Virus record (IMG/VR): IMGVR_UViG_3300028603_000003
Origin: a virus
Taxonomy: Duplodnaviria > Heunggongvirae > Uroviricota > Caudoviricetes
Strand: one strand, 5' to 3'
Length of the DNA: 64,000 bases
In this document: positions 5,457 to 54,860 of the stretch, one piece after another
Layout of the letters: every line of letters starts with the position of its first letter
Numbering within the stretch: position 1 is the stretch's first letter
The notes under the pieces: generated by a model
Database searches by the model: none
Told to the model about the DNA's origin: nothing
The model's input: only the letters and a program-made list of their open reading frames with translations
Made by a program: the position numbers and the translations under genes

Positions 5457-6047
5457 ATGCGTAAATTAGTCTCAGAACTTCTAGAAGAAGTTGGAAAGTC
5501 AGAGGATAAAGTTGCAGCGATTAAGGCAGCAGCAACACAAAACCCTGCAATCGTCGATGTCATTAAAGTTGCCTTCGATCCTGACTGGGAGTTCAATCTA
5601 TCTCCGAGCTACCCTGACAAGTTTAAATTAGATAGGACAACTCCAGCGGGATTGTCCATCACCGAACTCATCAAGGATCGTAAGAAGCTTCAAATTTTTC
5701 GAAAATTTGGTCCGTATGCAACACTAGACCAATCTCGACGGGAAACAATTTTCTTGACTTTCTTGGAAAGTCTTCACTACTCGGAAGCTGAAGTTCTAGT
5801 GTTTGCGAAGGATCGTGCTCTCGAAGAGCTTTACCCTTGGCTCAACCGAGACTTCTACAATGTTCTTTTTGGTATTACTGAACCTAAGAAGGTCGAGGTG
5901 GTAGAGAAAAAGGAAGAACCCAAAAGTGAATCTCAAGAAGTTTCTGAAAAGCCTACTGAAAAAGTTGAAGAGGTGAAAAGTGAAAATAGCGAACCTGTTG
6001 AAAAGCCTAAGCGGCGCGGAAGACCCAAAAAGTCTGATAGCAAGTAA
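5457..6047 (+). CDS. hypothetical protein with K/E-rich tail ending in an AT-hook-like RGRPKK
   Basis: ORF. C-terminal low-complexity basic/acidic tail. Its central domain is paralogous to the next ORF. Confidence 0.5.
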   Translation: MRKLVSELLEEVGKSEDKVAAIKAAATQNPAIVDVIKVAFDPDWEFNLSPSYPDKFKLDRTTPAGLSITELIKDRKKLQIFRKFGPYATLDQSRRETIFLTFLESLHYSEAEVLVFAKDRALEELYPWLNRDFYNVLFGITEPKKVEVVEKKEEPKSESQEVSEKPTEKVEEVKSENSEPVEKPKRRGRPKKSDSK

Positions 6048-6357
6048 CAAGGTTCTGCAAACTCTTATCGAATACAACTTCGCAAAAGAAAAACCATTTG
6101 ACCTACCCGAAGGCTATCCTGAAGGTAGGTCTTTGTTTTTGAACGAAACGAATCTTATGCAAGAAGCCAGAAGGCTCTACATCTTCACGAAGTCGGGGCA
6201 CCCGACTTTGAAGAAAGTTCGCAGAGAGCAATTGTTCGTAGAGATGTGCGAAGGCTTTTCGAAAGAAGAAGCAGAAATCTTGATTGCAGTCAAAGACCAA
6301 AAGTTGCATGAATTGTATCCGATTTTAGAACAATTGTATTCTAAAGAAGAACAATAA
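5980..6357 (+). CDS. hypothetical protein, paralog of the preceding ORF's domain
   Basis: Alignment: EAEVLVFAKDRALEELYPWL vs EAEILIAVKDQKLHELYPIL. Overlaps the upstream ORF by about 68 nt in another frame. Confidence 0.4.
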   Translation: MKIANLLKSLSGAEDPKSLIASNKVLQTLIEYNFAKEKPFDLPEGYPEGRSLFLNETNLMQEARRLYIFTKSGHPTLKKVRREQLFVEMCEGFSKEEAEILIAVKDQKLHELYPILEQLYSKEEQ

Positions 6358-6392
6358 ATAGTAAATCTGTATATAACTGTTTTGGAATTGAC

Positions 6393-8264
6393 ATGACATT
6401 TAAGAAATTTTTTAAAGAATCCGTAGAAGACTTGCAAGAGGTTTCCCAGTCTCCAGCAAGTCTTGAAGCATTTTTGAACTCTCCTGAAGCAGAGGGCATG
6501 AGATTTGGCTTCGAGGCTGAAGTAATCATGACTGGGTTCGACGATGATAATGACTATGATGAGTCAGAGATTGTAGACGAAGATATTGGTAGGACAGAAT
6601 CTTTAAATGATGTTACGACTTTCTTTGACATCAGGCCCAGTGCCAGAAGTTACATGACCTTAGAAAGTGACTTCTACGAATGGCTTGGCGAAAAAGAATC
6701 TGAGTATACAGAAAACTATATCAGTGATAATCTAACAGACCGAGCAGAAGAATTGTTTAGCAAATTGTCTGCTGAAGAGCAAGAAGAATCTGATGTAGAA
6801 GACTTTCTCGACGACGCTAGAAGTGAATTAGAATCCGAAGCAGAAGAAGATTTTTCCTACAATGATGATTACGGATTTTATGAATTTTGTCAAGCAATGG
6901 GATATAGAACTTATTATGACTTGTCAAACGCATACGGGTTTGATTGGCCCGACGATAGATACGAAAGTTCTTCTTCGGAATATGACGAAGACACTGGATA
7001 TTCTCTAGACAGAGCGGAAGAAGTCGCCTCTGAATTAGAAGATGCATTAGACATTAGTGTAAAGGCATATAACAGTTACCATGGCGGACAACTCGGCGCA
7101 CACTCAGAGTTGTGGAGAATTGAGCCTGATGGCTCTCTGGAGACAAAAGACCCCGAGTCAGAAGCTGGAATGGAGATCATAACTCCAGACGGAGGTTTGC
7201 CGCTCAAAGAAGGCATCACTGCGATGCAACAACTATTTTCTTGGCTCAGAGCTAAGCGAGCCTACACCTCAGAAGACGCGACAACAGGACTTCACATCAA
7301 TCTTTCAATTCCTGACCAATACAAGAAGACGATTGACTATGTAAAGCTAGTGCTTTTCTCTGGTGACGAGTATGTTCTTCAACAGTTTGATAGAGTCGGT
7401 GGATACAACGACGAGTCTGCACGAGAAATCAGAAGGGCGATTGAAAGAGGAAACGTAGAAGAGGCTCTCGGGCTTATGCGGAAAGGGCTTTCCACTGCGG
7501 CTTCTACTTCTCTGATTGCAAGCAACAAAGAAAGATCGGTAACTGTAAACAAGAAAAATAACTATGTTGAATTCAGAGTGGTAGGAAACGACTATTTGAA
7601 TATGGGAGAAGTTGTCAGACTCGCAGTTCTTAGATTCGCCAGAGCGTTGACAATTGCCGCTGACCCAGAAGCATACAAAGAAGAATACGCCAAGAAACTT
7701 TACAAGGTTATAACAAATGTTTCTGGTGAGATGTTGGAAGGTCTTAATCCAGACGTGGTAAAGATGTTTGCACAAACCTTGAGTCAACTTTCTTATGGCC
7801 CACCAACGAGAGAAACCGCGCAAGGCATTGCGAACCTAAAGGCCAGACTTCTACAAACTAGAATGACTCGTAAGTCTGATACCCCAAAGTTGCCTGACCG
7901 AAAAAATGAAAGAGGCAGCACCGAAAGTCAATTCAAGGCGGAAGCTTTGTTAAACGCAAAGGCGTTGGAACTGTTCTTGAATTACAGAAAACAAACTTAT
8001 GGGGAAGATAACTCCAAGCTAAATGCATATTTGTTTTCGCTGAAGAGAGCAGACTTTAGACAAATAGCCGCAGCCTTCTCTGTTTTTTGGGAAGACGTTG
8101 ACGATTTCGGAAAGAATGTTTTGGCAGTTTTCAGCCCGATTCCGGTAATAGAAAAAGAAAAGCCGGAACTTATTGGCAGGACAGCAGGATCACCATTTTT
8201 CATTGAACTTAAACCAGAGAAAAAGAAGATTTTCCTTGCCAATGTTATCCAGAATTACTCTTAA
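6393..8264 (+). CDS. large acidic protein with putative amidoligase-like (GS/GCS-type carboxylate-amine ligase) C-terminal domain; paralog 1
   Basis: N-terminal GFEAEV motif, a long D/E-rich insert, and TGLHINLS. The C-terminal roughly 250 aa is clearly paralogous to ORF 15501..16820 (IAADPEAYKEEYAKKLYK in both). Family call from memory of the amidoligase GxExE/TGxH pattern, unverified. Confidence 0.4.
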   Translation: MTFKKFFKESVEDLQEVSQSPASLEAFLNSPEAEGMRFGFEAEVIMTGFDDDNDYDESEIVDEDIGRTESLNDVTTFFDIRPSARSYMTLESDFYEWLGEKESEYTENYISDNLTDRAEELFSKLSAEEQEESDVEDFLDDARSELESEAEEDFSYNDDYGFYEFCQAMGYRTYYDLSNAYGFDWPDDRYESSSSEYDEDTGYSLDRAEEVASELEDALDISVKAYNSYHGGQLGAHSELWRIEPDGSLETKDPESEAGMEIITPDGGLPLKEGITAMQQLFSWLRAKRAYTSEDATTGLHINLSIPDQYKKTIDYVKLVLFSGDEYVLQQFDRVGGYNDESAREIRRAIERGNVEEALGLMRKGLSTAASTSLIASNKERSVTVNKKNNYVEFRVVGNDYLNMGEVVRLAVLRFARALTIAADPEAYKEEYAKKLYKVITNVSGEMLEGLNPDVVKMFAQTLSQLSYGPPTRETAQGIANLKARLLQTRMTRKSDTPKLPDRKNERGSTESQFKAEALLNAKALELFLNYRKQTYGEDNSKLNAYLFSLKRADFRQIAAAFSVFWEDVDDFGKNVLAVFSPIPVIEKEKPELIGRTAGSPFFIELKPEKKKIFLANVIQNYS

Positions 8265-8273
8265 GGAATTGTT

Positions 8274-9416
8274 ATGAGTTTCAAAAATTTTGTTTTAACT
8301 GAAGCCAAGAAAGAGAAGTTCGGGCATATCGAACACCTTGAGGACTTCATCATCGAAGAGGGTTTGGAAGGGTTTACACTTCTGAAGAAAGCCTTGGATG
8401 GGGTCATTGACTTTTGTAACGGGAAGCCGACAGATGTTGTGGTGAGTCAGAAGATTGATGGCTCACCTAACATCACATTTGGAGTTAACGCAGAAGGTAA
8501 ATTTTGGGTGGGAACCAAATCTCTATTCAACAAGAAGACCCCAAAGATTAACTATACTCCAGAAGACATAAACCGAAATCACGAATCTCCGGGGCTGAAT
8601 AAAAAACTTAACGTTGCTCTCAGATACCTACCAATGATTCGTGCTAAAGGAATTGTTTCCGCTGATATACTATTCACCGAAGACGACATCAAACAGCAGA
8701 CGATAGACAACAAGAAGATGTTGACCTTCAAAGCAAACACTCTTGTATATGCCGCTGAAGTTGGAACTGACATCGCAAGAAAGATTTCTGTTGCTAAGAT
8801 TGGAATCGCGGTGCACACAAAGTTTGAAGGTGATCATCCTCAAAACTTTAAAGCACAATACAACCCTGCAATTTCATTCACCCCACATCAAGCAGTGTTT
8901 GTTGTAAATCCCTATGATGTGACCGTCGCCCCATTCAATCAACAAGAAATGCAAGAGTTGGAAAGATTGGGTAGCATGCAAGTTGACCCAAAAATCTTTG
9001 ACATCATAAGAGAAACAAAGAATGCCCAGATGTTCAAAAAGTATACCAATCAGTTAGTAAGAAACGGACAGATAGAAACTGATCCAAAGTCTTTCTATAC
9101 TGGATTGAAACAGTTCTTCGAAGTAAACGATAACAGAATCTTCAGACACTTTGACGACGAATTGCTGAGTCTTTGTGAAGCATACCTTAACATCATCAAG
9201 ATAAAGAAGATGATTCTGAATCACCTAAGAGACACCGAAGCATTGCGGGCTTTTGTCAAGGATGGCGACTCTTTGGTTCCAGTTAGCGGAGAAGGATTTG
9301 TCGTAGTAGTTGACAATCTACCCATAAAACTAATTGACAGATCGGTCTTTAGCAAAGCAAACTTTACACAAGAAAAGCCTTGGGATCAGCAACCACAACA
9401 AGGAATACCACAGTGA
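8274..9416 (+). CDS. putative nucleotidyltransferase-superfamily polynucleotide ligase-like protein
   Basis: Lysine-adenylation-like motif VVSQKIDGSPNITFG (KxDG). No reliable further alignment to T4 Rnl1/Rnl2 or DNA ligase. Confidence 0.35.
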   Translation: MSFKNFVLTEAKKEKFGHIEHLEDFIIEEGLEGFTLLKKALDGVIDFCNGKPTDVVVSQKIDGSPNITFGVNAEGKFWVGTKSLFNKKTPKINYTPEDINRNHESPGLNKKLNVALRYLPMIRAKGIVSADILFTEDDIKQQTIDNKKMLTFKANTLVYAAEVGTDIARKISVAKIGIAVHTKFEGDHPQNFKAQYNPAISFTPHQAVFVVNPYDVTVAPFNQQEMQELERLGSMQVDPKIFDIIRETKNAQMFKKYTNQLVRNGQIETDPKSFYTGLKQFFEVNDNRIFRHFDDELLSLCEAYLNIIKIKKMILNHLRDTEALRAFVKDGDSLVPVSGEGFVVVVDNLPIKLIDRSVFSKANFTQEKPWDQQPQQGIPQ

Positions 9417-10408
9417 TCACACAAAAACTAAAACAAGACATTGTAGCGATTCTAGAAAACAAATTTGAAGAAGACGTTAGCGTTAGAAAGGTCGCAGTAG
9501 AAAAGTCTGACCAACTGATGAAGAAATTCGATACTCCCGAAGGAACCTATTGGTTTTATCAGAAAAGGAATCTTAGGTCTAACGACAAAGACAAGATTTA
9601 CTACTTGTTGGATAATCGTGGAAATTCTATTAAGACTTGGAAGAACTCCGATCTAGACTCTATAAAGAACGATTTGAAGAAGCTTCTTCGTTTGTCTGAA
9701 GAGGTCTTGGACGAAGACTTTCGCAGTATGGCTATCGGTGCAGCCGGTCTTGGTCTTGGGGCAATCGGTGCCTATCAAATGATGGACAAAGAACCTCCGA
9801 AAGAACCGACACCGCAAGTAAGGCAGGTTCAGCAAGGGGATATCAAGAAGCCGGAACTCAAAGCCCCTGTAGCCAAGAAAAATGTGCTATCTGGAGCAAT
9901 TGATTCTCTGTCTGAGATGGAGAAATACTTCGTAAAGAAAGCAATTCAAAACGGGATCGAAGGCGTCGAGCTAGTGGCGTTCTTGGCACAAGTCGCCCAC
10001 GAGACAGGAAATTTTTCTTCTATGGTTGAACAAGGTCCGAAGAAATACTTTAGAAGATACGAACCAAAATGGAATCCTCAAACCGCCAAGATTCTCGGCA
10101 ACGTCAAACCCGGAGATGGTGAAAGATTTAAAGGAAGATCATTTGTTCAACTAACGGGTAGAGATAACTACCGAAGAGCGGGACAAGCACTTGGACTTCC
10201 ACTAGAACAAAAGCCACATCTATTAGAGAATCCTTCAGTTGGATTCAAGGCTTCTTTGTGGTATTGGAACACTAGAGTTAAATCTAAGACAAACAACTTC
10301 GAAGATATTGAACAAGTCACCAAACTAATCAACGGTGGGTTGAACGGGTTGGAAGATAGAAAGCGAAAATTCGAAAAGTACCTGTCACTACTAGAACCTT
10401 CTAAGTAG
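9380..10408 (+). CDS. glycoside hydrolase family 19 endolysin (chitinase-like lysozyme)
   Basis: GH19 catalytic signatures FLAQVAHETGNF and GRSFVQLTGRDNYRRAGQALGL...KASLWYW. N-terminal hydrophobic stretch MAIGAAGLGLGAIGAY. The true start may be internal. Confidence 0.75.
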   Translation: MGSATTTRNTTVITQKLKQDIVAILENKFEEDVSVRKVAVEKSDQLMKKFDTPEGTYWFYQKRNLRSNDKDKIYYLLDNRGNSIKTWKNSDLDSIKNDLKKLLRLSEEVLDEDFRSMAIGAAGLGLGAIGAYQMMDKEPPKEPTPQVRQVQQGDIKKPELKAPVAKKNVLSGAIDSLSEMEKYFVKKAIQNGIEGVELVAFLAQVAHETGNFSSMVEQGPKKYFRRYEPKWNPQTAKILGNVKPGDGERFKGRSFVQLTGRDNYRRAGQALGLPLEQKPHLLENPSVGFKASLWYWNTRVKSKTNNFEDIEQVTKLINGGLNGLEDRKRKFEKYLSLLEPSK

Positions 10409-10445
10409 TTGTTAATGTTAACAACAAATTTATCGATAGACAAAA

Positions 10446-12860
10446 ATGAAGAATTTCAAATCCCTGCTTTCAGAACTAAGCAATAATGCACCAAAAGAAG
10501 CTGTGTTCACCTTTGGAAGATTCCAAGGTCTGACTATCGGCCACGAAAAGCTTTTGGACTCTCTATTCGCACAACCGGGCGATCACTTTGTTTTTATATC
10601 CCAGACAAAGGATGATCAGAAAAACCCACTGACGGCAGAGGATAAGAAGAAGTTTCTTGTTGCTGCATACCCAGAAAACAAAAAGTCTTTCTCCATCGAG
10701 TATAGGACTCCCTTTGACGCGCTACAGTCTTTGATTGAAAGGGGCTACACTAAAATCAAGATGATCGTCGGCGAAGATCGAGTAGAGACTTTTAAATCAT
10801 CTTTCGACGGATTCGATTTTCCTGTCGAAGTTAAATCCGCTGGCGATAGATCAGAAGACGGAAGCAAAGTTGAACAGGCAAACGGACAGGCGATTCGCGA
10901 TCTGGCGCGTGCTGGAGCACTAAAGGATTTCAATAACCTTGCAATGTCAAAGCTAGACTCTGACAAGAAGCTAGCGATGTTCAACGAAATCAGAAAGGCT
11001 TACGGAAAAGATTCTGTAAAGATTTCAAAGGCAGAGCAGGTAAGAGAGGATTACGTTGCCGGAAAGATTTTTAATCTTGGGGATTATGTCTCAGAGGGAA
11101 CAGAACAATTCAAGATCATAGATAGAGGGTCTAACTATGTGAGGGTTGTAAACCGTGAAGGTAGGGTTTCTAGAAAGTGGCTAACAGACATCGAACCTCA
11201 CCGGCCAGCAGAGAAAACCTTCGCAGAATCGTTTAAACCCGCTTCGAAGGACTCAGTCTTCACCGTTAATGGCTACACACCAAAGTTCCACTCAAAGGCT
11301 CCTGTGCGGGCTTTTGAGAAGTCTATGGACGTGCAAGACCAGTATGCATTGTTGGAAGCGGTAAAGGAAACCGAAAAGCTGTTCAATTCCCTATCGCTCA
11401 AAGAAATGTATTCTGCATTCCAAAGATCAGGAGAGTTTTTGGAGAAGCTTGGTGTGGTTGAACTACATGAATATCGGAAGAGTTTTGAAACTGATATTGC
11501 CAAAAAACTGATCGAAAACGTTTCTTCAATTGGCGAAGTCTTCGATCACGACAAAGAAAAAATTGTGCAGTTCTTCGCAGACTTGGTTGGTGTAAATAAA
11601 AACCTAACTTTGGAATCAACAATCCAAAGATGCGTCAACAAAATTAATAACTGCGTTCTAAGCGAAGCAGAAAAATCTGTGTTTGTGCAGATCATTGACC
11701 TATTGATTTCGGAAGGCTTTGAGTTTGATTTCTACAGCCTAAAGTTTATTCGAGAGTGCTCAGTAGAAGAGGGAACCGACAGAGACTTGTTGTTGTTTGC
11801 GGATCAACTCATCGAGGGCATGACATTCGAAGACATTGTCCCCCTGTACGAAGAGAAAGACTTTGTAATCATTACCGAAGCATTTGGTAGGAAGACTGTA
11901 AAGGTTGAACAGCCACTAGACGACAGAAAGATTCAGCGCAAGGCTAAACAGATCGCAGTTCAATACATGAAGCAAAGGAAGTCTAGAAAAGCCGTTGACC
12001 AGTTGACGACTGCTGAGAAAAAGAAGATTGAAGAAATCGTCGGACAGAAGGGATCAATCCTGACAATGATTTCTAAGAAGCTTGGAAAGAAGATTAGAAA
12101 GATCGAAGCCGAAAGACTTCTGCCACCAGAACCTGTCACGCCACAAGAGCTAGTAAAGGAAGAAGCTGGTGAAGAGTACGTCGGTATCCACTATGGCAAG
12201 ACTCCGGGTGTAGGCTCTCTGTCTGGAAGTATGTGGGGCACAGGGGCCAAGGGCGCAGAGAAGGAAAGAGTTATGAACTCTTCTGACAAACGGCTGCGCA
12301 AAAGGGTCTACTTCTATCTTCAACAAACTCCCAACACACTACCAAAGCCAGAGGCAGAGGTAAGTGGAGTTCACGTATATAGAGCAAAGCTGAATAACAT
12401 CTATGATGCTACAAACGATCCAGAAGGAATTTTGAAAAGACGCAAACCCGGAACAGATTTGGAGACTGCAATTCTAGACGCGGGATACGACGGCTATCTA
12501 AACAGAGAGTTCATGGGTGGCGCGATTGTTGTTTTGAATAAGGACAAAGTAGATGTTGATTACCTCGGAACAAGAAGTGAAGCGCAGGAGAAGGTTGGAC
12601 CTATTACAGCACCTAACCAAGAAATCAGAAACTCAGGAATCAAAAAGTCAAACACTCCAGCAATCATCGACTTCAGACAAACAAGAGATGGATTCGAATC
12701 TGGATTGCTCAAAGGCGACGAATCACTATTCTTGATTAAGAACAAGAAAGAGATGGCTGAAAGATTCCCTTCATATGACATGAGAATGGGTAGAGCATTC
12801 TTCTCAAACGAGACTGAAAAGGATGAGTTTGTAGAATGGTACAGAAAAATAAATGGCTAG
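10446..12860 (+). CDS. 804-aa protein with N-terminal HIGH-motif nucleotidyltransferase (NMN/cytidylyl-transferase-like) domain and an uncharacterised 600-aa extension
   Basis: FTFGRFQGLTIGHEKLL matches the G-x-F-x-x-x-H-x-G-H signature of NMNAT/CTP-transferase-fold enzymes. No motif recognised in the remainder. Confidence 0.5.
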   Translation: MKNFKSLLSELSNNAPKEAVFTFGRFQGLTIGHEKLLDSLFAQPGDHFVFISQTKDDQKNPLTAEDKKKFLVAAYPENKKSFSIEYRTPFDALQSLIERGYTKIKMIVGEDRVETFKSSFDGFDFPVEVKSAGDRSEDGSKVEQANGQAIRDLARAGALKDFNNLAMSKLDSDKKLAMFNEIRKAYGKDSVKISKAEQVREDYVAGKIFNLGDYVSEGTEQFKIIDRGSNYVRVVNREGRVSRKWLTDIEPHRPAEKTFAESFKPASKDSVFTVNGYTPKFHSKAPVRAFEKSMDVQDQYALLEAVKETEKLFNSLSLKEMYSAFQRSGEFLEKLGVVELHEYRKSFETDIAKKLIENVSSIGEVFDHDKEKIVQFFADLVGVNKNLTLESTIQRCVNKINNCVLSEAEKSVFVQIIDLLISEGFEFDFYSLKFIRECSVEEGTDRDLLLFADQLIEGMTFEDIVPLYEEKDFVIITEAFGRKTVKVEQPLDDRKIQRKAKQIAVQYMKQRKSRKAVDQLTTAEKKKIEEIVGQKGSILTMISKKLGKKIRKIEAERLLPPEPVTPQELVKEEAGEEYVGIHYGKTPGVGSLSGSMWGTGAKGAEKERVMNSSDKRLRKRVYFYLQQTPNTLPKPEAEVSGVHVYRAKLNNIYDATNDPEGILKRRKPGTDLETAILDAGYDGYLNREFMGGAIVVLNKDKVDVDYLGTRSEAQEKVGPITAPNQEIRNSGIKKSNTPAIIDFRQTRDGFESGLLKGDESLFLIKNKKEMAERFPSYDMRMGRAFFSNETEKDEFVEWYRKING

Positions 12861-13698
12861 AAAGTTAATCGAAAAAACATGCGCAGAGTGTGGGAGCCTG
12901 TACTCTACTAGATTAAAAACGGAGTGCTGCTCAAAATCTTGTGCTAATAGAAAGTCTGCGAGAGATAGGAAACTTACAATCGATCCTGACAGTGGCTTAA
13001 CTCTGACAGAGCTTTATCATAAAAGATCAGTAGAATCTTTGCGAGAGACATATTATGGGAGCGAATCTCACAAGAATGCTGCAAGACAAAATATTTTAAA
13101 AATGGACAGAGCAGAGGCAACAGCCAAGGCGACAGAAACTAAATCCAAGGTGGATGAAGACGGGTTAACCTTGGCACAAAAGTCCACCCAAAAAGCTATA
13201 AAAACTAAAATAGCTAATGGCATGATAGTATGCGCAGAACAAGTAGAACCATTCTATAAATACACAAGAGAAGTAAGGGTCATGACAGAGAGAAACCTAA
13301 AGAGTTGGTCTGTGGATAGACTCGAACAGCGAGGCAGGCACACGTATCATGCAGACCACATCTATAGCATCTTTGATGGCTACCACAACAATGTGCCACC
13401 AGAAGTAATAGCCAATATTAAAAACATTAGGTTAATACCTGCTAAAGAAAATTTGCAAAAACAATCAAGAAGTGACATTAGTTTGATGGAGTTGTACAAG
13501 TTAGTTAACCAAAACTTTAACGAAACTGAAAATTTGGCTGAAGAACGGAAAGTTATTAAAGCTGCGCCTCACAGCCTTAATGGGAAGTCTTCGTGTAATG
13601 TGTGTGGTAAAATAACCAACCACGGAAACATAAAGAGATGGCACAATGAAAATTGCAGATTCTGGTCTTCACCAAAAGTTTCAGACTTAACAAAATAA
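12853..13698 (+). CDS. HNH endonuclease-like protein (free-standing homing endonuclease candidate)
   Basis: N-terminal Cys cluster CAECG...CCSKSC and HNH-like HADHIYSI...N...IRLIPAKEN. Confidence 0.5.
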   Translation: MARKLIEKTCAECGSLYSTRLKTECCSKSCANRKSARDRKLTIDPDSGLTLTELYHKRSVESLRETYYGSESHKNAARQNILKMDRAEATAKATETKSKVDEDGLTLAQKSTQKAIKTKIANGMIVCAEQVEPFYKYTREVRVMTERNLKSWSVDRLEQRGRHTYHADHIYSIFDGYHNNVPPEVIANIKNIRLIPAKENLQKQSRSDISLMELYKLVNQNFNETENLAEERKVIKAAPHSLNGKSSCNVCGKITNHGNIKRWHNENCRFWSSPKVSDLTK

Positions 13699-13713
13699 CA
13701 AGGATATCAAAAT

Positions 13714-15417
13714 ATGCTTATTCAGATTCTAGAAGAAGCAATGTCACACGAAGACATTCAAACTTGGGCAGAACTCCAATCATACGCTGGTTATGATGTG
13801 GAACTGACCATTAACGAAGATGTGGCTACTGTGGTCTTGGAGAGCAAGGGGGAGAAACAAAAAGTCCTTGCCAAGATCGAGAAGCCTCTCGAAGACGGGA
13901 AGACCCCTGAAGAGAAGAAAAAGAAAATCAAAGCAACTACTGTTGCTGACGAGGAAGGGTTAAAGGACATCGAAGTTAACGTTATCGGTTCACACTACAT
14001 TTACAACCACGGCAAGAAGCCAGCAGGTAATGGTAAGTGGGCTTTCGGTGTTGGCTCTCGCGAACCAAAAGACCTTTTGTTCTTTGATGGTGCCTATTCA
14101 CAAGTTTCCAAGCAAGCAGTCGAAGCTGCAAAGAAGAAAGCCAAAAAAGAAGGTAAGACTGCGGTTAAACTCTATGTCATGGAATCCAACGTTCCTTCCA
14201 TGGAAGTCGATTACAATATCTCAAAGACAGGCAAGCTAGTCGAGTGCAAGCTAAGTGTTGACGGAAAGTCTTCTGTAATTTCTGGGTTGAGCGAATCTGC
14301 TGTGGAAAAGAAGGCTCTAGAGTTAATCGAGAAAGTCGAAATTGAATTCTTGGAAGAGCGCAGTCTAACAAAGAAAGAAACAAAGAAAAAGGAAAAAGTC
14401 GTGAAGGGAATCAAGAAATCAGCAAAAGACATGAAGGCCCGTTACGGAAAAGATTGGAAGTCTGTAGCATATGGCGCAGCAACAAACATTGCCAAGAAGA
14501 GCAAACTAAAAGAGTCCTGTGACACAGAAAAAGAAGAACTTGAAGAAGCAAAAGAAAGAATCTTCAAGCTTTACTTCTTCGACAAAGACGAGCCACAAGA
14601 TGTCAGATCAGTCGAGGTTAGAGCAGAAAACCGCAAGGACGCGATGGACTATGTCTATTACAAGTTTGGTCCAGTCAGAATCCAGAGAGTTCAAGTTCTA
14701 GATGAAGCTGAAAATCCAGATGGTGTATTGATTGCTGAGCAAGTACAAACATTCGAAATTGAGTACGAAATGCAAAGCAACGACGGCACATCTAAGGGAA
14801 CCACAAAGTACAAAGCTCTGAGTGCTGGTGAGGCCCGGACAAGATTCCTAAAAGATAATCAAGGCAAGAGAGTTACTATTCGTAACGTTAGGCCCGCAAA
14901 GCCGGGTTTGAATGAGGCCGCAGGAGTTGCTATGGACGTTCATGACGTTGCAAAGCTTATTATGAGAGAAGCTTTGAAGTTTGCAAATGAAAGACTGTCA
15001 CAGAAACAAGACGACGAGTTTGATCGGGATACTGAACTAGAAGACGGCGTCAACGACTACCTTGACTTGGTTATGCATCATCTAGAAGACAACCGAGTAG
15101 AGTTGACCAGCCCAGAAGCAATCAAGTCTTACCTTGGCGAAGACTATGAATCTGGACAGTACGGGTCAAGTAAAGATGAAGTAATCGATAACCTAATTTC
15201 GAAATACCTAGATGGTGAAGAATCAGAAGAACTTCGCATTGCACTGTCAGACGCTTTCGAAGCTGGAGCAGAACTTGGAACAGGCTCGGAGCAAGAGTCC
15301 GAATGGGAATCTGAAGACATCGAAGAACTTGAAGATGAACCTAAAGAGAAGAAGGTTTCAGAGTCAACAGTCTCTATCTACGCCAAGCTAATTTCTCAAA
15401 ACAAAGCTAACATGTAA
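13714..15417 (+). CDS. hypothetical K/E-rich 567-aa protein with acidic C-terminus
   Basis: ORF with low-complexity charged regions. No motif recognised. Confidence 0.5.
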   Translation: MLIQILEEAMSHEDIQTWAELQSYAGYDVELTINEDVATVVLESKGEKQKVLAKIEKPLEDGKTPEEKKKKIKATTVADEEGLKDIEVNVIGSHYIYNHGKKPAGNGKWAFGVGSREPKDLLFFDGAYSQVSKQAVEAAKKKAKKEGKTAVKLYVMESNVPSMEVDYNISKTGKLVECKLSVDGKSSVISGLSESAVEKKALELIEKVEIEFLEERSLTKKETKKKEKVVKGIKKSAKDMKARYGKDWKSVAYGAATNIAKKSKLKESCDTEKEELEEAKERIFKLYFFDKDEPQDVRSVEVRAENRKDAMDYVYYKFGPVRIQRVQVLDEAENPDGVLIAEQVQTFEIEYEMQSNDGTSKGTTKYKALSAGEARTRFLKDNQGKRVTIRNVRPAKPGLNEAAGVAMDVHDVAKLIMREALKFANERLSQKQDDEFDRDTELEDGVNDYLDLVMHHLEDNRVELTSPEAIKSYLGEDYESGQYGSSKDEVIDNLISKYLDGEESEELRIALSDAFEAGAELGTGSEQESEWESEDIEELEDEPKEKKVSESTVSIYAKLISQNKANM

Positions 15418-15435
15418 TGTTTGCTGGCATGACGA

Positions 15436-15464
15436 AAATGGGGCCACTGGCCCCATTTTGTTTG
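15436..15464 (+). terminator. rho-independent terminator
   Basis: aaaatggggccactggccccatttt hairpin followed by a T-run. Confidence 0.55.
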
Positions 15465-15469
15465 AGAAG

Positions 15470-15477
15470 TATAAATA
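15470..15477 (+). promoter_or_regulatory. T4-type late promoter box TATAAATA
   Basis: Exact TATAAATA about 24 nt upstream of ATG 15501. Confidence 0.4.
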
Positions 15478-15500
15478 TTAGTAAAAGGAAGGGTATCTAA

Positions 15501-16820
15501 ATGCGCGTGGTAAATGAAGTAAAAATGTCTCCGTCCGTTTTCTCTAAAGGTCTAGTTACCGCTGGAGACAAGGGAGTTCTTATCGGATTTGAGTTTGAGG
15601 TTGGAGTTCCTTTGGATAACCAAGATGAACTCAACATTACCTCTTCTCGATGGACATATCTAAAAAGTATCCAAGAATTTCTGTCGTGGATCAAGGCTTC
15701 CGCAGACAGCGTAAGCGAGGACGTTGAGTTCGAAATCTCCGACGATTACACAAAGTGGGCCAAACAAAAGACAAAAGACTTTTTGGAGTCTCTTAGTGAA
15801 GATGGTTTGGACAAGCTAACATCTTTGTACGATGAAGTCTATGACAAACACTCATTGGTCAATATGACAAAGTTCGTAACATTGGGTGCGTCTACTGAAC
15901 TTCAAGCTAGACTGGCTGACTTTCTTGAGCTTAGTGAGTATGAAGAAACTGACGACTACCTTCTATTCATGGATCACATTGACGAAGTTACTAGATCGAA
16001 GCTAAACTCATTTGTTTCCGATTCCTATGGAAACATTGCTGGACTGTTTAAGAAATTTGGATTGAAATATTCGCCACAAGAAAAAGACGTTGACGATAGG
16101 TATCACTTGATTAAGAATTCTGTTAGGGATGTGACTCAAGCCGAGATTGCCAAGACACAAGTTCACGTCATTGACATCGCAAAGACAATTACAAAGAACC
16201 TCACAGACTGGTATATCGAACCAGACACAACGATTAGGCCGGACGACAAATTCAATTATACTGGAGCAGAAGTTGTCAGTCCTCCGCTTAAACCAAATGA
16301 AGCCATGGCAGCACTTGATTCATTCTATGCAGCATCCAAAAAACATGGATGGGTAACAAACAAATCAACCGGACTACACATCAACGTTTCTATTCCAGCC
16401 AAGATTGATGTTTTAAAGCTAACACTATTTTTGGGTGACAAGTATGTGTTGAAGTCATTTGGTAGAGAAGGTTCTGCGATGGCTCGCTCTGTTCTAGATG
16501 ATCTAGAGAAGGGAGCAGCGTTAGATAGCATTGTTGGTCTGACACCGGATAATATCAAGCGTCTTTCTCTGTCGGCAAAATACTTCGCAGATAACCACTA
16601 CGCATCTATTAGCTACGAAACAAACGTAGACACATTGAAAAAGAACAAGTATATCTCTTTCAGGCATGCTGGAGGGGACTACTTAAACGAGATGCAGAAG
16701 ATTAGAGATACGATTGGTAGGTTCGTTACAGCCATGATTATCGCTGCCGATCCAAATGCTTACAAAGAAGAGTACATGAAGAAACTTTATAAACTCGCAT
16801 CACCAAAGTCCGCTGAATAA
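15501..16820 (+). CDS. putative amidoligase-like protein, paralog 2
   Basis: GFEFEV, TGLHINVS and IAADPNAYKEEYMKKLYK motifs shared with ORF 6393..8264. Confidence 0.4.
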   Translation: MRVVNEVKMSPSVFSKGLVTAGDKGVLIGFEFEVGVPLDNQDELNITSSRWTYLKSIQEFLSWIKASADSVSEDVEFEISDDYTKWAKQKTKDFLESLSEDGLDKLTSLYDEVYDKHSLVNMTKFVTLGASTELQARLADFLELSEYEETDDYLLFMDHIDEVTRSKLNSFVSDSYGNIAGLFKKFGLKYSPQEKDVDDRYHLIKNSVRDVTQAEIAKTQVHVIDIAKTITKNLTDWYIEPDTTIRPDDKFNYTGAEVVSPPLKPNEAMAALDSFYAASKKHGWVTNKSTGLHINVSIPAKIDVLKLTLFLGDKYVLKSFGREGSAMARSVLDDLEKGAALDSIVGLTPDNIKRLSLSAKYFADNHYASISYETNVDTLKKNKYISFRHAGGDYLNEMQKIRDTIGRFVTAMIIAADPNAYKEEYMKKLYKLASPKSAE

Positions 16821-25900: not shown

Positions 25901-26658
25901 TTGGTATCGAGTTGGCTAAAGAAAAGGGTTGCGCACCAATCTTTAACGAATTCACAGAGATTGACGGAAACTTAGAGAGCAACAAAACTTTGTGGGCCAA
26001 CGGCAAGTACATGCAAAGAATTTGGGAAGTTGCTCCACATCTGAAGGCACAGGCAATTCAACATGGTTGCAGATTTACGCACCACACTTCAATTGCTCCA
26101 ACAGGGACTATTTCGCTGTCAGTCAACAACAATGTGAGCAATGGAATTGAACCTTCTTTCTCTTTGAAATACACCAGAAACGTTATCGAGCAAGGCAAGA
26201 AAACAAAGAGAGCGGTTGATGTTTATAGCTACGAGCTTTTGTTGTATAAACACATTACAGGCTCTGACGAAGCGCCAGATTACTTCAGCACCTCGGACAC
26301 TGTAAAAACCTACGAGCACGTTGACATTCAGGCGGCAGCACAATATTGGTGTGATAGCAGCATTAGCAAGACAATCAACGTGCCCTCCGACATTCCGTTC
26401 GAAGAGTTCAAAGAAGTTTACATTTATGCTTATGAAAAAGGACTGAAGGGTGCCACCACATTCAGGTTTAACCCTGCCGCATTCCAAGGCGTACTTGTAA
26501 AGGAAGATGACTTGGCTAAGACCGAGTATGTTTTCCGGCTGGAAGATGGCTCAGAAGTTGTGGCTAAGGGTAACGATTCAATCGTTTATGACGGAGAGGA
26601 ACACACCGCAGCGAACTTGTTCGATGCGATTAAGGAAGGCTACTATGGCAAGTTTTAA
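22959..26658 (+). CDS. ribonucleotide reductase catalytic subunit, interrupted by an intein (23223..24206) and a group I intron (24882..25566). Exon 1 is 22959..24881 and exon 2 is 25567..26658
   Basis: RNR motifs ILSNAG...SLIN-C, GCGIGYEFSTLRPK, SGPLPFMDIFD, GGRRGAQMATFAVWHPDVEDFI. NPCG at the exon 1 end and EQPLPPEGSCLLGSVNV at the exon 2 start together rebuild the canonical NPCGE...CNLGS[LI]N motif. Class (I versus II) is not resolved. No ATP cone. Confidence 0.85.
23223..24206 (+). mobile_element. intein with LAGLIDADG homing-endonuclease domain inside the RNR gene
   Basis: Starts CLAGDTPVV (block A) and has a TKDH block B. Two LAGLIDADG motifs: GFIHGLVYGDGSD and YLRGFIAGVLATDGSV. Ends ..AFAIANGMKTGQ, followed by +1 Cys. 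Host sequence resumes CTVSEIIEDSM. Confidence 0.75.
24882..25566 (+). mobile_element. group I intron in the RNR gene, carrying an HNH endonuclease ORF
   Basis: Exon 1 ends in U directly after NPCG, followed by an in-frame TAA. Exon 2 starts with GAA (Glu) right after a G at 25566. No RBS or ATG for exon 2. The intron sits in the most conserved codon string. Confidence 0.7.
25097..25513 (+). CDS. intron-encoded HNH homing endonuclease
   Basis: Multiple CxxC pairs plus an HNH core (DLDHIDP...N...CKNCH). Confidence 0.7.
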   Translation: MQKCKMRFCHRRIMRECASCKESIPIEEFTWRGGGRKGLQSTCKFCTLERLREHRAYTRRLVGRWKLRKGCSRCGFKAEHSCQLDLDHIDPTTKNSKCNGRAFEPSWSVKRIKEELSKCVVLCKNCHALKTYENKDYL

Positions 26659-49530: not shown

Positions 49531-49531
49531 A

Positions 49532-53419: not shown

Positions 53420-53420
53420 A

Positions 53421-54860
53421 TTGTCTAAAAACAACGGAACAATAAAAATGCAATTCAAAGATTTCATTAGTGAAGCAAGACGCAATCCAGACCAGAATCC
53501 AAAGATTCCTGTGATTCAACAATTGAAGAAAATCTTCAAGGACAACTATGAGTACGACGATCCCAAAGATGTTGTAAGGGAAGGCCACGACGATCTATAC
53601 TTTGTCTCCATGACCAAAGTGGACAAGCTTGGCATCAATCCAACCTCAAAGTATAACACTCCACTGGGAATCTATGCATATCCATTGTCATACGTTCTAT
53701 ATCAAGTTGAACTGAGAAACGATTCTGAAGGAACAGAAACTTTAAAGAGTTTGCCGTTTGCTGGAGGAAGCCCATTCGCAAACGTATTCAAGACTGACTA
53801 CAACAGAAACCTTGTCTGCCTGAACAAAGAAAACTTTGATTCTGTTACTTTCAACCACTATGTTCGGAAAGTTGGCAACTTCCTTGCACGCTTCAGAATC
53901 GCACAAATGGAAAAGCGTTTCGTCGATAAGATGGACGACGAGAAGCGAGAAATCTATTGGAAGAATTCTGTTGACATGGTCGAAGAATGGGCGGATAAAT
54001 CAGAAGGCAGTGCCAGAGTTCAAACTTGGGGAGGAAGATTCTGGTACGTCACAATGAAAGCTGCCATCATGATGGCAATGTCTTCTGGCAAAGAGCAGAA
54101 GGAAGGCAAGGTCTCTCCAGATTCTTTGCTTTGGAATAAGCTATTCCGAGAGATTGGGATTGATGGTGTAGTTGATTATGGTGAAGGCATCATTCACAGC
54201 GCAGAGCCAACTCAAGCCGTGTTCTTCTCCAAAGAACCAATTGAAGTTGTCGCAAGGTTTGACAACAAAGATTACAAGCCATCTGATGCTGCGGCTGCGA
54301 AAATTTTAGGCAAAGCAAATGAATACGTTATTGTTGGGTTGCTCTACGATGACCAGAAAAAGGCTGAACGAGGGGCCAATCTTTTCAAATCATTTTTCAA
54401 GAAAGATTTGGGAGAGCAGTTTAAGTCTTCCGGGTTTTCTATTATGCGGAATTTCGGGTTCATATACAATGTAATAGGAAACATTTTAAATAAAGTGTAC
54501 GAAGAGGCAGTGCCTTCCCCAAAGCAAAGCAAAAAGGCGGTTGACTTGATTCAGAAGTCGATGGGCCTAGCAAATATAAAGCAGCTAGATCAGGAGTATA
54601 TCAAAAATACTGTATACGTTAGCCCATTTGTCAAGGTTTTCCCTCTACTACAGTTCGCCTCGGACGAGAATCTAGAAAAGCTAGTGAGAGAAAATCTTAC
54701 TACTATTTTTGACGAAGTTGGCAACTCGCCAGAAATCGAGGATGCAGTTAAAGCTCTGCCTAGAGTTTGGCAAGCAATTGTAGATGTGGTAGAGTATAAG
54801 AAGGGCAAAGGAAACTTTGAAGCAACATTCGACAAATATAGGCACTGGAAACATGATTAA
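53421..54860 (+). CDS. hypothetical 470-aa protein with CTS-like N-terminus
   Basis: TTG at 53421 or ATG at 53448. From ATG 53448 it begins MQFKDFISEA, matching the shared N-terminal motif. Confidence 0.45.
   Translation: MSKNNGTIKMQFKDFISEARRNPDQNPKIPVIQQLKKIFKDNYEYDDPKDVVREGHDDLYFVSMTKVDKLGINPTSKYNTPLGIYAYPLSYVLYQVELRNDSEGTETLKSLPFAGGSPFANVFKTDYNRNLVCLNKENFDSVTFNHYVRKVGNFLARFRIAQMEKRFVDKMDDEKREIYWKNSVDMVEEWADKSEGSARVQTWGGRFWYVTMKAAIMMAMSSGKEQKEGKVSPDSLLWNKLFREIGIDGVVDYGEGIIHSAEPTQAVFFSKEPIEVVARFDNKDYKPSDAAAAKILGKANEYVIVGLLYDDQKKAERGANLFKSFFKKDLGEQFKSSGFSIMRNFGFIYNVIGNILNKVYEEAVPSPKQSKKAVDLIQKSMGLANIKQLDQEYIKNTVYVSPFVKVFPLLQFASDENLEKLVRENLTTIFDEVGNSPEIEDAVKALPRVWQAIVDVVEYKKGKGNFEATFDKYRHWKHD

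Follow-up and report, generated by a model that had tools for sequence, protein, structure and literature searches.

Two open reading frames (ORFs) on the plus strand of the window (the whole 64,000-nt stretch analysed, from an uncultured T4-like phage), designated here par1 (6393..8264, 623 aa) and par2 (15501..16820, 439 aa), are paralogs that diverged long ago and belong to a large subfamily of Amidoligase_2 specific to phages. The reading that we prefer, with a probability of roughly 0.55, is that they encode ATP-dependent amidoligases that are packaged in the capsid and probably delivered with the DNA, like Alt of phage T4. Because the family has a T4-style capsid tag and was detected in the virions of a cultured relative, virion-borne enzymes are probable, and the two proteins are most likely cargo rather than steps of a pathway shared with the neighbouring genes.

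Both ORFs are present as initially annotated, and a BLASTP alignment of 476 columns with 30% identity (E=5e-36) shows their homology. The initial annotation placed the shared part in a C-terminal domain of ~250 aa; the sharing was borne out but the limit was not, as residues 14–446 of par1 align with residues 4–439 of par2. Hence, homology covers the whole of par2, with a peak in the last ~200 aa, and the motifs quoted earlier, GFEAEV/GFEFEV, WRIEPD/WYIEPD, TGLHIN, FRVVG/FRHAG, and AADPxAYKEEY, are found in both proteins.

Par1 is a long-type amidoligase of the glutamine-synthetase (GS) fold with a C-terminal extension, recognised by PF12224 and the family HMM (E=3e-99), and has orthologs with 48–54% identity at four related loci (L001, L087, L088, and L089). 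Its first catalytic strand, GFEAEV, an ExE metal-ligand-type motif (6507..6524), corresponds to the invariant columns G29/E31/E33 of par2. The acidic insert noted earlier is real: residues 47–235 (6531..7097) are 30.7% D+E, split the ligase core after strand 1, and have a counterpart that is helical in the predicted structure of par2 (H57–H215). Throughout the subfamily the core is interrupted past the first strand (GFExE) by such a helical, acidic insert of 160–190 residues. The main catalytic core (7098..7730), delimited by homology, profile and conserved motifs, includes WRIEPD (7113–7130), GMEIITP (7167–7187), TGLHIN (7284–7301), FDR (7386–7394), FRVVG (7572–7586), and AADPEAYKEEY (7656–7688). 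The C-terminal extension (aa 447–623; 7731..8261) is typical of family members of 600–770 aa and is missing from par2; a conserved C-terminus, ...FLxNVIQNYS, is common to par1 and the L001 paralogs. Par2 is a short-type GS-fold amidoligase with GFEFEV at 15585–15602, WYIEPD at 16209–16226, TGLHIN at 16368–16385, and FRHAG at 16659–16673.

The amidoligase-like assignment held up, as both ORFs score above the Pfam PF12224 cut-off (34.1 bits for par1 against a cut-off of 22), and the nearest BFVD structures are auto-named 'Amidoligase enzyme'. The family is large (2,414 clusters at 50% identity) and so far unstudied. The residues of the predicted active site are well conserved: in 37 diverse members G29-E31-E33, E240-D242, E257, H293-N295, and R322 are strictly conserved, and R388-H389 is near-invariant (≥90%). 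We infer from this analysis that the proteins are ATP-dependent carboxylate-amine ligases. By analogy with GS, GCL and PafA, two Mg2+ held by the invariant Glu and His residues would let ATP activate a carboxylate as an acyl-phosphate, and attack by an amine would then give an amide or isopeptide bond, a chemistry predicted from the superfamily. Repeated fusions to and neighbourhoods with gamma-glutamyl cyclotransferase (GGCT) point to gamma-glutamyl-type amide chemistry.

Par1 begins with a CTS-like leader, MTFKKFFKESVEDLQE/VSQSP (6393..6440), in which E9, E16 or both are predicted to end a hydrophobic-x-Glu cleavage motif. Starts of the form M.FK.F occur in three ORFs of the window against 0.04 expected (P=9e-6), namely par1 (MTFKKFFKE), the DUF6267 protein described below (MSFKNFVLTE, a leader of the window's lineage that was not found on cyanophage DUF6267), and a 470-aa ORF outside the initially annotated interval (53448..54860, plus strand), a predicted further cargo whose leader MQFKDFISE↓ARR is comparable with MKTYQEFIAE↓ARV of T4 IPII. 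The N-terminus of par2, MRVVNE↓VKMSP, has hydrophobic-x-Glu at residue 6, like ITE-6 of T4 Alt. Nearly all of 120 homologs start with M-[RK]-x-x-[EDQ]-hydrophobic, followed by a variable stretch that closes with hydrophobic-x-E↓[AV]xMNP. N-terminal GGCT or GNAT fusions enter downstream of this leader, and thus the leader is portable. In 82 related loci it is present on 54% of amidoligases and 64% of GH19 proteins but on 16% of other ORFs (~1% expected), with E at position 9 in 50% versus 8%; 73% of the leader ORFs adjoin another, and the amidoligases are found in islands of unrelated genes with a common leader. ART-PolyVal proteins of relatives bear MSSFKKFFYE or MK(I/V)TESFIE. Against the cargo reading, the MxFKxF leader of the window's lineage departs from the MRAxEF consensus at positions 2–5, and the N-terminus of par2 is just 6 residues. 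Several leader-bearing GH19 proteins run on into a Tat-like SRRGFL signal, a feature more in keeping with an exported endolysin than with cargo of the capsid.

A family member, gp196 of Agrobacterium phage Atu_ph07 (family HMM E=1e-57, 57.93 kDa), was identified among the virion proteins of that phage from 14 unique peptides that cover 30% of it (Attai 2018 Table S5). The virions were PEG-purified, and obvious contaminants (RNR, SSB, RecA-like) show 1–3 peptides. Atu_ph07 encodes a gp21-type protease, and all 15 leader-bearing CDSs examined there yielded virion proteins, as compared with 18 of 66 others (Fisher p=1.3e-7, a value inflated by gp53–62 paralogy); the leader was present in 0 of 48 undetected proteins examined. 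In the source phage, the CTS-like leader with its T4 gp21-type cleavage motif would steer the proteins into the prohead, where trimming, storage with the DNA and delivery into the next host would follow, on the model of Alt and the internal proteins in T4. Inside the host, the amidoligases would draw on its ATP supply to modify one of its proteins or metabolites. Against packaging in this phage, the 64,000-nt window holds no head genes or protease.

Presence in virions would also fit mainly structural internal head proteins, in which a vestigial ligase fold is combined with an acidic insert that serves as scaffold, charge balance or DNA mimic. The core and internal peptides of T4 are acidic, as is the par1 insert. 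However, residues of catalytic type are invariant or nearly so in a family of ~2,400 clusters with less than 35% identity, and conservation is lowest in the insert, which is nearly missing in one homolog (P0059). A mainly structural role is very unlikely.

Between the paralogs lie five genes on the plus strand. The KxDG ligase-like protein (8274..9416) was confirmed as DUF6267 (Pfam E=4e-77), an RNA-ligase-like covalent nucleotidyltransferase (K60xDG, E340GxV). It is followed by the GH19 lysozyme recognised earlier, a muramidase/chitinase-type lysin (9413..10408, likely GTG start at 9413; profile E=6e-13, PHROG endolysin 8e-40) whose interior includes a hydrophobic stretch rich in Gly and Ala, AIGAAGLGLGAIGAY. 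The HIGH-nucleotidyltransferase fusion (10446..12860, 804 aa) is likewise supported, its N-terminus matching PHROG 'cytidyltransferase' (6e-42), with a Pfam CTP_transf_like score of 16.9, under the cut-off of 21. It begins with a HIGH-type (cytidylyl/adenylyl)transferase-like region (aa 1–250); after an intervening stretch comes a C-terminal domain (aa ~569–800), which L089 encodes as a separate gene of 249 aa. Its N-terminus is also kept in pelagiphage HTVC008M and may simply be part of the nucleotidyltransferase fold, not a leader. Neither Pfam nor NCBIfam profiles supported the assignment of an HNH gene: the sole match of this 281-aa ORF with Zn-ribbon/HNH-like motifs (12853..13698) is PHROG 5104. 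The ORF occupies the ART-PolyVal slot of relatives, its final 15 aa match the ART-PolyVal C-terminus, and it is missing from the corresponding position in L001, L002, L087, and L089; as judged from these comparisons of predicted proteins, it has replaced an ART-PolyVal gene. The 567-aa charged protein (13714..15417) is present as described, has a variable middle, and gave no family match in profile searches. Its gene is directly upstream of the par2 orthologs in L001, L002, and L087; the L089 contig stops inside its copy, ahead of any par2 gene.

The initial annotation suggested that this block could be an effector module ligating peptides or metabolites; as a single co-functional unit, its nucleotidyltransferases would supply substrate activation and its amidoligases the ligation step. 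The gene order is indeed kept in the closest relatives (L001, L087, L088/L089), and the genes of the interval are all on one strand with tight spacing. A shared pathway did not stand, since phyletic patterns are decoupled. DUF6267 and the nucleotidyltransferase pair or fuse in ~470 phages lacking this amidoligase subfamily and are almost never in amidoligase neighbourhoods elsewhere; the two genes form a unit of their own, kept together in about 470 T4-like phages of marine origin. Homing-endonuclease-type genes and ART-PolyVal appear and disappear within the block, and a terminator-like hairpin and a promoter-like box part par2 from the upstream genes. A single co-functional module is thus largely refuted by comparative genomics and has very little probability left.

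The exact T4 late-promoter consensus TATAAATA annotated before par2 is present at 15470–15477 (plus strand, 23 nt before the ATG), a motif match only and not significant alone, with 2 copies in the window versus 1.1 expected. The looser box xTAAATA[G/T] is strand-biased in the window (8 on the plus strand versus 1 on the minus strand) and lies 38–40 nt upstream of par1, w_226, and ORF 53448 (at –40 in the last) and 30 nt upstream of par2. The par1 copy, ATAAATAG (6354..6361, plus strand), is a motif match 39 nt upstream of the ATG. Between the 567-aa gene and par2 there is an intrinsic-terminator-like hairpin on the plus strand (15431..15462; A-tract, GGGGCC-ACT-GGCCCC, T-tract; –22.5 kcal/mol, z=–3.5). 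These predicted elements would separate par1 and par2 from the nearby replication genes.

The position of the block between RNase H and primase/ThyX/RNR would suit enzymes that couple amino acids or amines to nucleotides or hypermodified bases, and cytidine/dCMP-deaminase-like domains recur as neighbours (7/149) and fusion partners. The deaminase domains, however, are carried by giant proteins of the polyvalent type, a hint at effector roles. Within the block, no kinase, aGPT-Pplase-type or glycosylase-type partner for base modification was detected, we know of no GS-fold ligase in the known thymidine hypermodification pathways, and virion presence is left unexplained; nucleotide modification is hence highly improbable.

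GH19 is the only gene of the block recurrently linked to these amidoligases. It abuts one (3 nt or less) in at least six independent loci (L019, L026, L039, L041, L054, and L058), is fused to one in P0059 and, together with GGCT, is the commonest neighbour (8/149 each). This linkage would be expected if the amidoligases worked together with the lysin late in the cytoplasm, targeting the gamma-D-Glu/mDAP carboxylates of stem peptides or of peptidoglycan precursors. Such a system would be a reduced form of the 'peptidoglycan modification cassette' of podoviruses, for which envelope remodelling or a block to superinfection has been proposed and in which the literature places Amidoligase_2 with GGCT (PMC5498523; PMC3890496). 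On the other hand, COOH-NH2_lig, ATP-grasp, Gn_AT_II, and GGCT were not found in the block or in about 40 other scanned ORFs of the window, and tblastn revealed no GGCT. The portable leader, the leader-gene islands and gp196 in virions are not accounted for, and T4 lysozyme e adjoins ipII and ipIII without functional coupling. Cell-wall modification is therefore possible but unlikely. Under the capsid-cargo reading, the block would be a plastic 'arsenal' that interrupts the replication module, containing leader-tagged amidoligases, ART-PolyVal (in relatives) and possibly the RNA-ligase-like DUF6267, plus the GH19 lysin and a mobile gene.

Among known systems, the PF12224 proteins of LUZ24-, tf-, phiEco32-, RIO-1-, and CW02-like podoviruses (Iyer et al. 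2009; Hardies et al. 2013) belong to the same Pfam family above the gathering score and have the GS-like fold, the ExE/H/R signature, and the AIG2/GGCT association given in the Pfam description. In contrast, the present subfamily aligns with no more than about half of the Pfam profile, as its core is split by the 160–190-aa insert. Its members have 440–770 aa or more, as compared with ~270–400 aa, lack the podovirus partners COOH-NH2_lig, ATP-grasp, and Gn_AT_II, and add the CTS-like leader, C-terminal extension, multi-paralog arrays, and GH19 linkage; unlike the podovirus proteins, they occur in T4-related myoviruses and jumbo phages. Foldseek gave E ~1e-3 to the phage tf/CW02 amidoligases versus ~1e-22 within the subfamily. 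PafA/Dop, glutamine synthetase, gamma-glutamylmethylamide/polyamine synthetases, YbdK/GCS2, and gamma-glutamylcysteine ligase share 9–16% identity with the amidoligases, and no PDB chain was matched at the sequence level. As compared with the PafA/GS group, the amidoligases have a monomer-type architecture with a helical insert, and no Pup-like or partner gene was identified.

The T4 internal proteins have only the CTS in common; gp21 cuts off their N-terminal propeptides, and Alt is cleaved at ITE-6 (PMC3012670; PMC5694885). IPII and IPIII start with MKTYQEFIAE↓A and IPI with MKTFKEF. The resemblance to Alt, IPI, IPII, and IPIII lies in a short N-terminal leader of like pattern with a hydrophobic-x-Glu end, which alone is common to otherwise unrelated proteins, and in genes located in plastic regions beyond the head-gene cluster, beside a lysozyme gene. 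Alt is a precedent for enzyme cargo, virion presence here being known for a homolog. Beyond the leader there is no sequence homology with the amidoligases, and the predicted chemistry is ATP-dependent amide ligation, as compared with ADP-ribosylation (Alt) or nuclease inhibition in T4 cargo.

Polyvalent proteins (Iyer et al. 2017) are similar in concept, as enzymes entering with the invading DNA, although amidoligase, COOH-NH2 ligase, and GGCT domains are not mentioned in that work. ART-PolyVal genes lie within the relatives' version of the block, and in some relatives the amidoligase domain is found in multidomain proteins of 1,500–2,900 aa with deaminase, NTase, ParB or GNAT domains, whereas the proteins of the window are single-enzyme polypeptides. 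Polyvalent proteins are reportedly marked by a MuF-type head-morphogenesis domain; the amidoligases appear to be targeted via a T4-type leader instead.

The two ORFs that the initial annotation described as amidoligase-like paralogs, 6393..8264 (par1, 623 aa) and 15501..16820 (par2, 439 aa), are real, and all motifs quoted for them were found in par1 and par2 alike. They are homologous, as proposed (BLASTP E=5e-36, 30% identity), but the similarity is not limited to the C-terminal 250 aa, since the alignment spans essentially all of par2. The poly-acidic insert described for par1 was located at residues 47–235, of which 30.7% are Asp or Glu. Par1 and par2 scored 34.1 and 27.0 bits, respectively, against Pfam Amidoligase_2 (PF12224; gathering threshold 22), with only profile columns ~17–131 matched in both because of a long insert after the first strand. 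In an alignment with 37 diverse members, G29-x-E31-x-E33, W237-x-x-E240-P-D242, E257, T290-G-x-H293-I-N295 and R322 are invariant, and R388-H389 are near-invariant (≥90% conserved). Putative metal-/ATP-binding residues (ExE on strand 1, a further Glu, His and Arg) are kept by both paralogs. In the AlphaFold2 model of par2 (pLDDT 85.4, pTM 0.74), the conserved residues sit on strands 27–37, 237–240, 253–259, 291–297 and 384–391, and a helical domain (residues 57–215) lies between strand 1 and the remainder. Profile search and predicted structure thus place the ORFs in the ligase class, with a glutamine-synthetase (GS)-like catalytic fold and not an unrelated one, and their enzyme class as GS-fold amidoligases is established. 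By analogy with the superfamily, they would use an acyl-phosphate mechanism, and ATP-dependent amide-bond formation is the predicted activity.

Sequence and profile searches of the PDB gave no sequence-level match for the amidoligases; the amidoligase and DUF6267 alignments returned chance-level hits only, and fold comparison was needed. Structural neighbours in BFVD are automatically named 'Amidoligase enzyme'; amidoligases of the classical podovirus type (phage tf, CW02) lie much further away there than the nearest neighbours. PHROGs includes no family for par1 or par2. The family name itself was already known from automatic annotation in Pfam and UniProt. Predictions of phage amidoligase cassettes date from 2009–2013 (PMC5498523; PMC3890496), and a jumbo-phage survey cites the 2009 amidoligase paper solely for ATP-grasp RNA ligases. 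A literature search revealed no paper on the insert-bearing subfamily, its leader (see below) or leader-tagged gene islands, and none on virion presence of the subfamily or its linkage to GH19. A word search gave 409 subfamily clusters at 90% identity, and an exhaustive profile search 2,414 representatives at 50% identity, of which 1,301 had E≤1e-30. Two to five amidoligase paralogs are often present per locus.

Nearly every family member starts with M-[RK]-x-x-[EDQ]-hydrophobic, followed by a variable stretch and then hydrophobic-x-E/[AV]-x-M-N-P right before the ligase domain (the slash marks the predicted gp21-type cleavage point). N-terminally fused GGCT or GNAT domains sit between this leader and the hydrophobic-x-E junction; therefore, the leader is a portable N-terminal element outside the fold. 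A stretch of ~6–16 aa with a hydrophobic-x-Glu end, resembling the T4 capsid-targeting sequence (CTS), is found in par1, par2 and the family-wide profile. Par1 starts MTFKKFFKE...LQE16/VSQSP, and the pattern M-x-x-[LV]-[NT]-E6/VKMSP opens par2 and its orthologs. The latter start, with Glu at residue 6, mirrors that of T4 Alt: the protease gp21 cuts N-terminal propeptides off Alt and the internal proteins (IPs), always after Glu, and Alt is cut at ITE-6 (PMC5694885). T-even internal proteins are diverse proteins with only the CTS in common (PMC3012670). In the T4 genome record, IPII and IPIII start MKTYQEFIAE/A and IPI starts MKTFKEF; the ipII and ipIII genes adjoin the lysozyme gene e.

Many neighbouring proteins of unrelated kinds also have the leader: its frequency in the related loci is 54% among amidoligases, 64% among GH19 proteins and 16% among the remaining ORFs, as compared with ~1% expected from composition. 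The consensus is M1-R/K2-A3-x4-E/D5-F6-[LIV]7-x8-E9-[ASG]10, with Glu at position 9 in 50% of leader-bearing ORFs vs 8% of others; individual leaders, from Atu_ph07 and the window among others, include MRWEQLTE, MTFKKFFKESVEDLQE and MQFKDFISE. A leader-bearing neighbour lies next to 73% of leader-bearing ORFs, and there are runs of 4–7 consecutive genes. An origin of the shared N-termini from a repeated DNA cassette was rejected, as the upstream regions have only a short box in common. M.FK.F starts occur in three of the 129 window ORFs vs 0.04 expected (P=9e-6). The DUF6267 protein starts MSFKNFVLTE/AKK. A 470-aa ORF with no family match (start 53448, region 53408–54860, + strand) starts MQFKDFISE/ARR, nearly identical to the T4 IPII/IPIII leader; it has relatives in two other loci (L075 and L054) and is predicted from its sequence to be an additional cargo protein. 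The N-terminus of the 804-aa protein of the block was also considered as a leader, but this was weakened by the similar start of the nucleotidyltransferase of pelagiphage HTVC008M.

Virion evidence comes from the cultured Agrobacterium jumbo phage Atu_ph07, which has 16 T4 core genes including one for a gp21-type protease. Its family member AUZ94978.1 (family HMM E=1e-57; GFEFE, WIFEPD and TGFHIN motifs) carries the leader MRWQDISSKKLTE, followed after the predicted cleavage point by LKMN, and was identified as gp196 from its place in the gene order and its exact mass (57.93 kDa by computation, 57,94 tabulated). Labelled 'hypothetical protein' in the proteome paper, gp196 was detected in virions with 14 unique peptides (30% coverage), as compared with 20 peptides for the portal protein (Attai et al. 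2018). The published virion list was matched by molecular weight to 81 annotated CDSs in two regions of the Atu_ph07 genome. All 15 leader-bearing proteins in these regions (gp43, 46, 47, 53–62 with MRWEQLTE, MKWHQLTE and similar starts, 196 and 199) are in the list, and none of the 48 undetected proteins has a leader (Fisher p=1.3e-7, to be read with the paralogy of gp53–62 in mind). Virion purification was by PEG, and a small number of evident contaminants are present at 1–3 peptides. Ten consecutive genes, gp53–gp62 (L086, 39484–49507), all start M[RK]W.QL[TN]E and comprise the larger gp53 and gp54 followed by eight ~30-kDa paralogs, all abundant in the published proteome; this uncharacterised internal-protein family could serve as a test bed for the leader. 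The window derives from an uncultured phage and contains no head genes; virion presence is documented for the homolog gp196. The proteome of Ralstonia phage RsoM2USA consists of only 10 gel bands; ORF26 is not among them, and these data are hence uninformative on packaging.

The window comes from a distant T4-like myovirus, and all its genes lie on the + strand. A search of the block against GenBank phages gave no nucleotide-level relative, and the RNase H shares no more than ~40% identity with the cyanophage and Aeromonas phage enzymes. T4-type genes for DNA ligase, Nudix, gp59-like protein, gp32, RNase H and two DUF6433 proteins precede the block, and those for primase, ThyX, a split RNR, and then gp45 and gp44 follow it. 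The tandem DUF6433 paralogs (5457–6047 and 5980–6357) overlap slightly directly upstream of par1, an arrangement kept in L087 and L088. The RNR large subunit is split into ORFs 22959–24884 and 25702–26658, with a LAGLIDADG-like match in the first and the same split in a relative, L002, which suggests interruption by an intein or homing endonuclease. Elsewhere, ORF 36658–37452 matches Pfam Acb3 (CBASS inhibitor, E=1e-32) and is likely an anti-CBASS gene judging from this match.

The initial annotation suggested that the whole interval, paralogs included, could be one module, which did not hold: the distribution of DUF6267 and the nucleotidyltransferase is decoupled from that of the amidoligases, the slot of the 281-aa ORF is variable, and a hairpin followed by a box isolates par2. 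DUF6267 occurs in 467 GenBank records and the HIGH-type nucleotidyltransferase, which forms the N-terminus of the 804-aa protein, in 483. Their distributions are nearly identical and consist almost wholly of marine T4-like cyanophages, with pelagiphage HTVC008M and Methylophilales phages in addition. There, the pair lie side by side, or two short ORFs apart (HTVC008M), at the same position in the replication module, and are fused in some metagenomic proteins. The amidoligase subfamily is absent from these genomes, and tblastn with par2 gave two jumbo phages only; DUF6267 and the HIGH nucleotidyltransferase are a gene pair of their own, independent of the amidoligases. The reading of DUF6267 as a KxDG ligase-like protein was borne out by KxDG as motif I, motifs IV/V and the ligase adenylyltransferase fold. 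This is the first structural assignment of the DUF6267/'cytidylyltransferase' pair, widespread in cyanophages, as an RNA-ligase-like enzyme and a HIGH nucleotidyltransferase. A 489-aa ORF (49259–50728) matches T4 RNA ligase 1 (Pfam RNA_lig_T4_1, E=2e-10) and, with DUF6267 counted in, brings the RNA-ligase-type enzymes of the phage to two. For the C-terminal domain of the 804-aa protein, only two homologs and no family were found, and an ART fold suspected for it gained no support.

The call of the 281-aa Cys-rich ORF (12853–13698, + strand) as HNH lacks a Pfam or NCBIfam match and would have to rely on a visible H-x-D-H...N...N pattern and Cys clusters. NCBIfam likewise gave nothing for the 567-, 804- and 470-aa proteins. 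In four relatives (L001, L002, L087 at 13876–14922 and L089 at 8826–9875), the same slot is occupied by an ART-PolyVal ADP-ribosyltransferase gene; proteins of this type start MSSFKKFFYE, MNTFKKWY or MK(I/V)TESFIE/A. The 281-aa ORF keeps the last 15 codons of the ART-PolyVal gene (87% identity), and therefore gene replacement occurred. From its sequence, the ORF looks like an in-frame replacement, probably by a mobile endonuclease-like gene, and the Alt-like ART was therefore lost from the window phage. Between DUF6267 and GH19, the presence of GIY-YIG/NUMOD3 genes likewise varies from relative to relative.

The identification of the GH19 gene (9413–10408) was upheld (PF00182, 49.6 bits vs a threshold of 25.5; PHROG endolysin, 8e-40), and GH19 is the only block neighbour genuinely linked to the amidoligase family. 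At six or more independent loci, it abuts an amidoligase gene (≤3 nt apart), with either gene first, and in one related protein, P0059, an amidoligase is fused through a Gly/Ala-rich hydrophobic segment to GH19. Of the 149 non-redundant ORFs that lie no more than 3.5 kb from an amidoligase gene at 82 related loci, GH19 and GGCT/AIG2 were found 8 times each, cytidine/dCMP-deaminase-like proteins 7, ferritin-like 5, DUF6267 2 and cytidylyltransferase 0 times. The GH19 linkage would fit the main rival reading, a less probable one, of a peptidoglycan-directed role for the amidoligases. The window differs from the podovirus 'peptidoglycan modification' cassette in its gene content: Pfam detected none of the cassette partners COOH-NH2_lig (PF14395), ATP-grasp, class-II glutamine amidotransferase and GGCT in the block and ~40 other window ORFs, and tblastn found no GGCT in the window. 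In three loci (L006 15132–15776, L046 14899–15573, L036 4636–5277), a GH19 lysin beside an amidoligase has an MRxxEF leader and, directly after it, a twin-arginine-like SRRGFLGALGAGA segment, in place of which the window GH19 has a Gly/Ala-rich hydrophobic segment after an N-terminal region of ~115 aa. A Tat-like SRRGFL after the leader, as in some leader-bearing GH19 proteins, fits simple capsid cargo awkwardly.

The RsoM2USA locus (L003, 3795–8608) has an amidoligase homolog adjoining a complete PrkA/DUF444 (YeaH)/SpoVR (YcgB) operon and an NMNAT-Nudix fusion beside it, a context unusual for a phage. Neither this context nor that in Atu_ph07 (RlaP) is conserved at other loci.

Par1 and par2 each have a single enzymatic domain, as compared with the two to fifteen effector domains per polypeptide of polyvalent proteins. 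Multidomain relatives occur in L067 (8015–14260), L078 (8603–14620), L006 (9971–14719) and L050 (8177–12562), and as P0225 and P0251; these giants are 1,460–2,940 aa in size, and the largest multidomain family members reach 2,938 aa. One has a cytidine/dCMP-deaminase domain above the Pfam threshold, and others give sub-threshold matches to Pol-beta NTase, ParB_N and GNAT. The giants are polyvalent-protein-like, with architectures unreported for the amidoligase domain; the 2017 polyvalent-protein paper (Iyer 2017) includes no amidoligase, COOH-NH2 ligase or GGCT domains.

Par2 is separated from the upstream genes by a strong hairpin (−22.5 kcal/mol, z=−3.5 on direct folding) followed by TATAAATA; the hairpin escaped a generic terminator scan, owing to pairing of its A/T tracts. 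This exact T4 late box is present before par2 as annotated but does not serve as a late-promoter marker, occurring twice in the window vs 1.1 times expected. Late-box-like motifs are found at fixed spacing before par1 and par2. The form xTAAATA[G/T] occurs 8 times on the + strand (6354, 15471, 16827 and 53408, also 3344, 5277, 18651 and 37660) vs once on the − strand, and four copies lie 30–40 nt upstream of start codons, including an xTAAATAG 40 nt before the 470-aa ORF. Similar boxes lie at orthologous positions in L001 and L002, and xTAAATA[G/T] is a candidate lineage-specific variant of the late promoter.

Phage amidoligases have hitherto been assumed to be cytoplasmic and cell-wall-modifying. 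They have been annotated since 2009, and we know of none with a demonstrated substrate. The evidence best supports a reading in which par1 and par2 belong to a capsid-cargo family as catalytically competent amidoligases, for which we infer packaging in this phage, leader cleavage, ejection and enzyme activity. In this reading, the block is a plastic arsenal region, made up of leader-tagged enzymes and set into the replication module. Gamma-glutamyl-type amides are the product suggested by the GGCT fusions and neighbours. At a probability of roughly one in three, the leader (M-[RK]-x-x-[ED]-F-hydrophobic-x-E/A and lineage variants) would be a short capsid-targeting element, recognisable from sequence, that marks a large and so far overlooked set of enzymes packaged in the virions of T4-related and jumbo phages. 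Within this set, GS-fold amidoligases (~2,400 clusters) would enter the cell with the DNA and, as infection begins, modify host proteins or metabolites by ATP-dependent amide or isopeptide bonds (e.g. gamma-glutamylation, a Pup-like tag). Such chemistry, for host takeover or anti-defence, would form a new delivered class beside ADP-ribosylation.

If the subfamily is capsid cargo, the leader would provide a sequence rule by which to predict the proteins packaged by T4-related and jumbo phages that are uncultured, with leader-tagged islands containing hundreds of unknown proteins, and Atu_ph07 (gp196, gp53–62) would be a tractable cultured model for direct tests. To our knowledge, the chemistries of virion-delivered phage effectors have to date comprised ADP-ribosylation, nuclease inhibition and virion RNA polymerases, and ATP-dependent amide ligation would then join them. 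The window block is analogous to the alt and ip loci of T4, and the ART-PolyVal genes of its relatives are the direct analogue of Alt.
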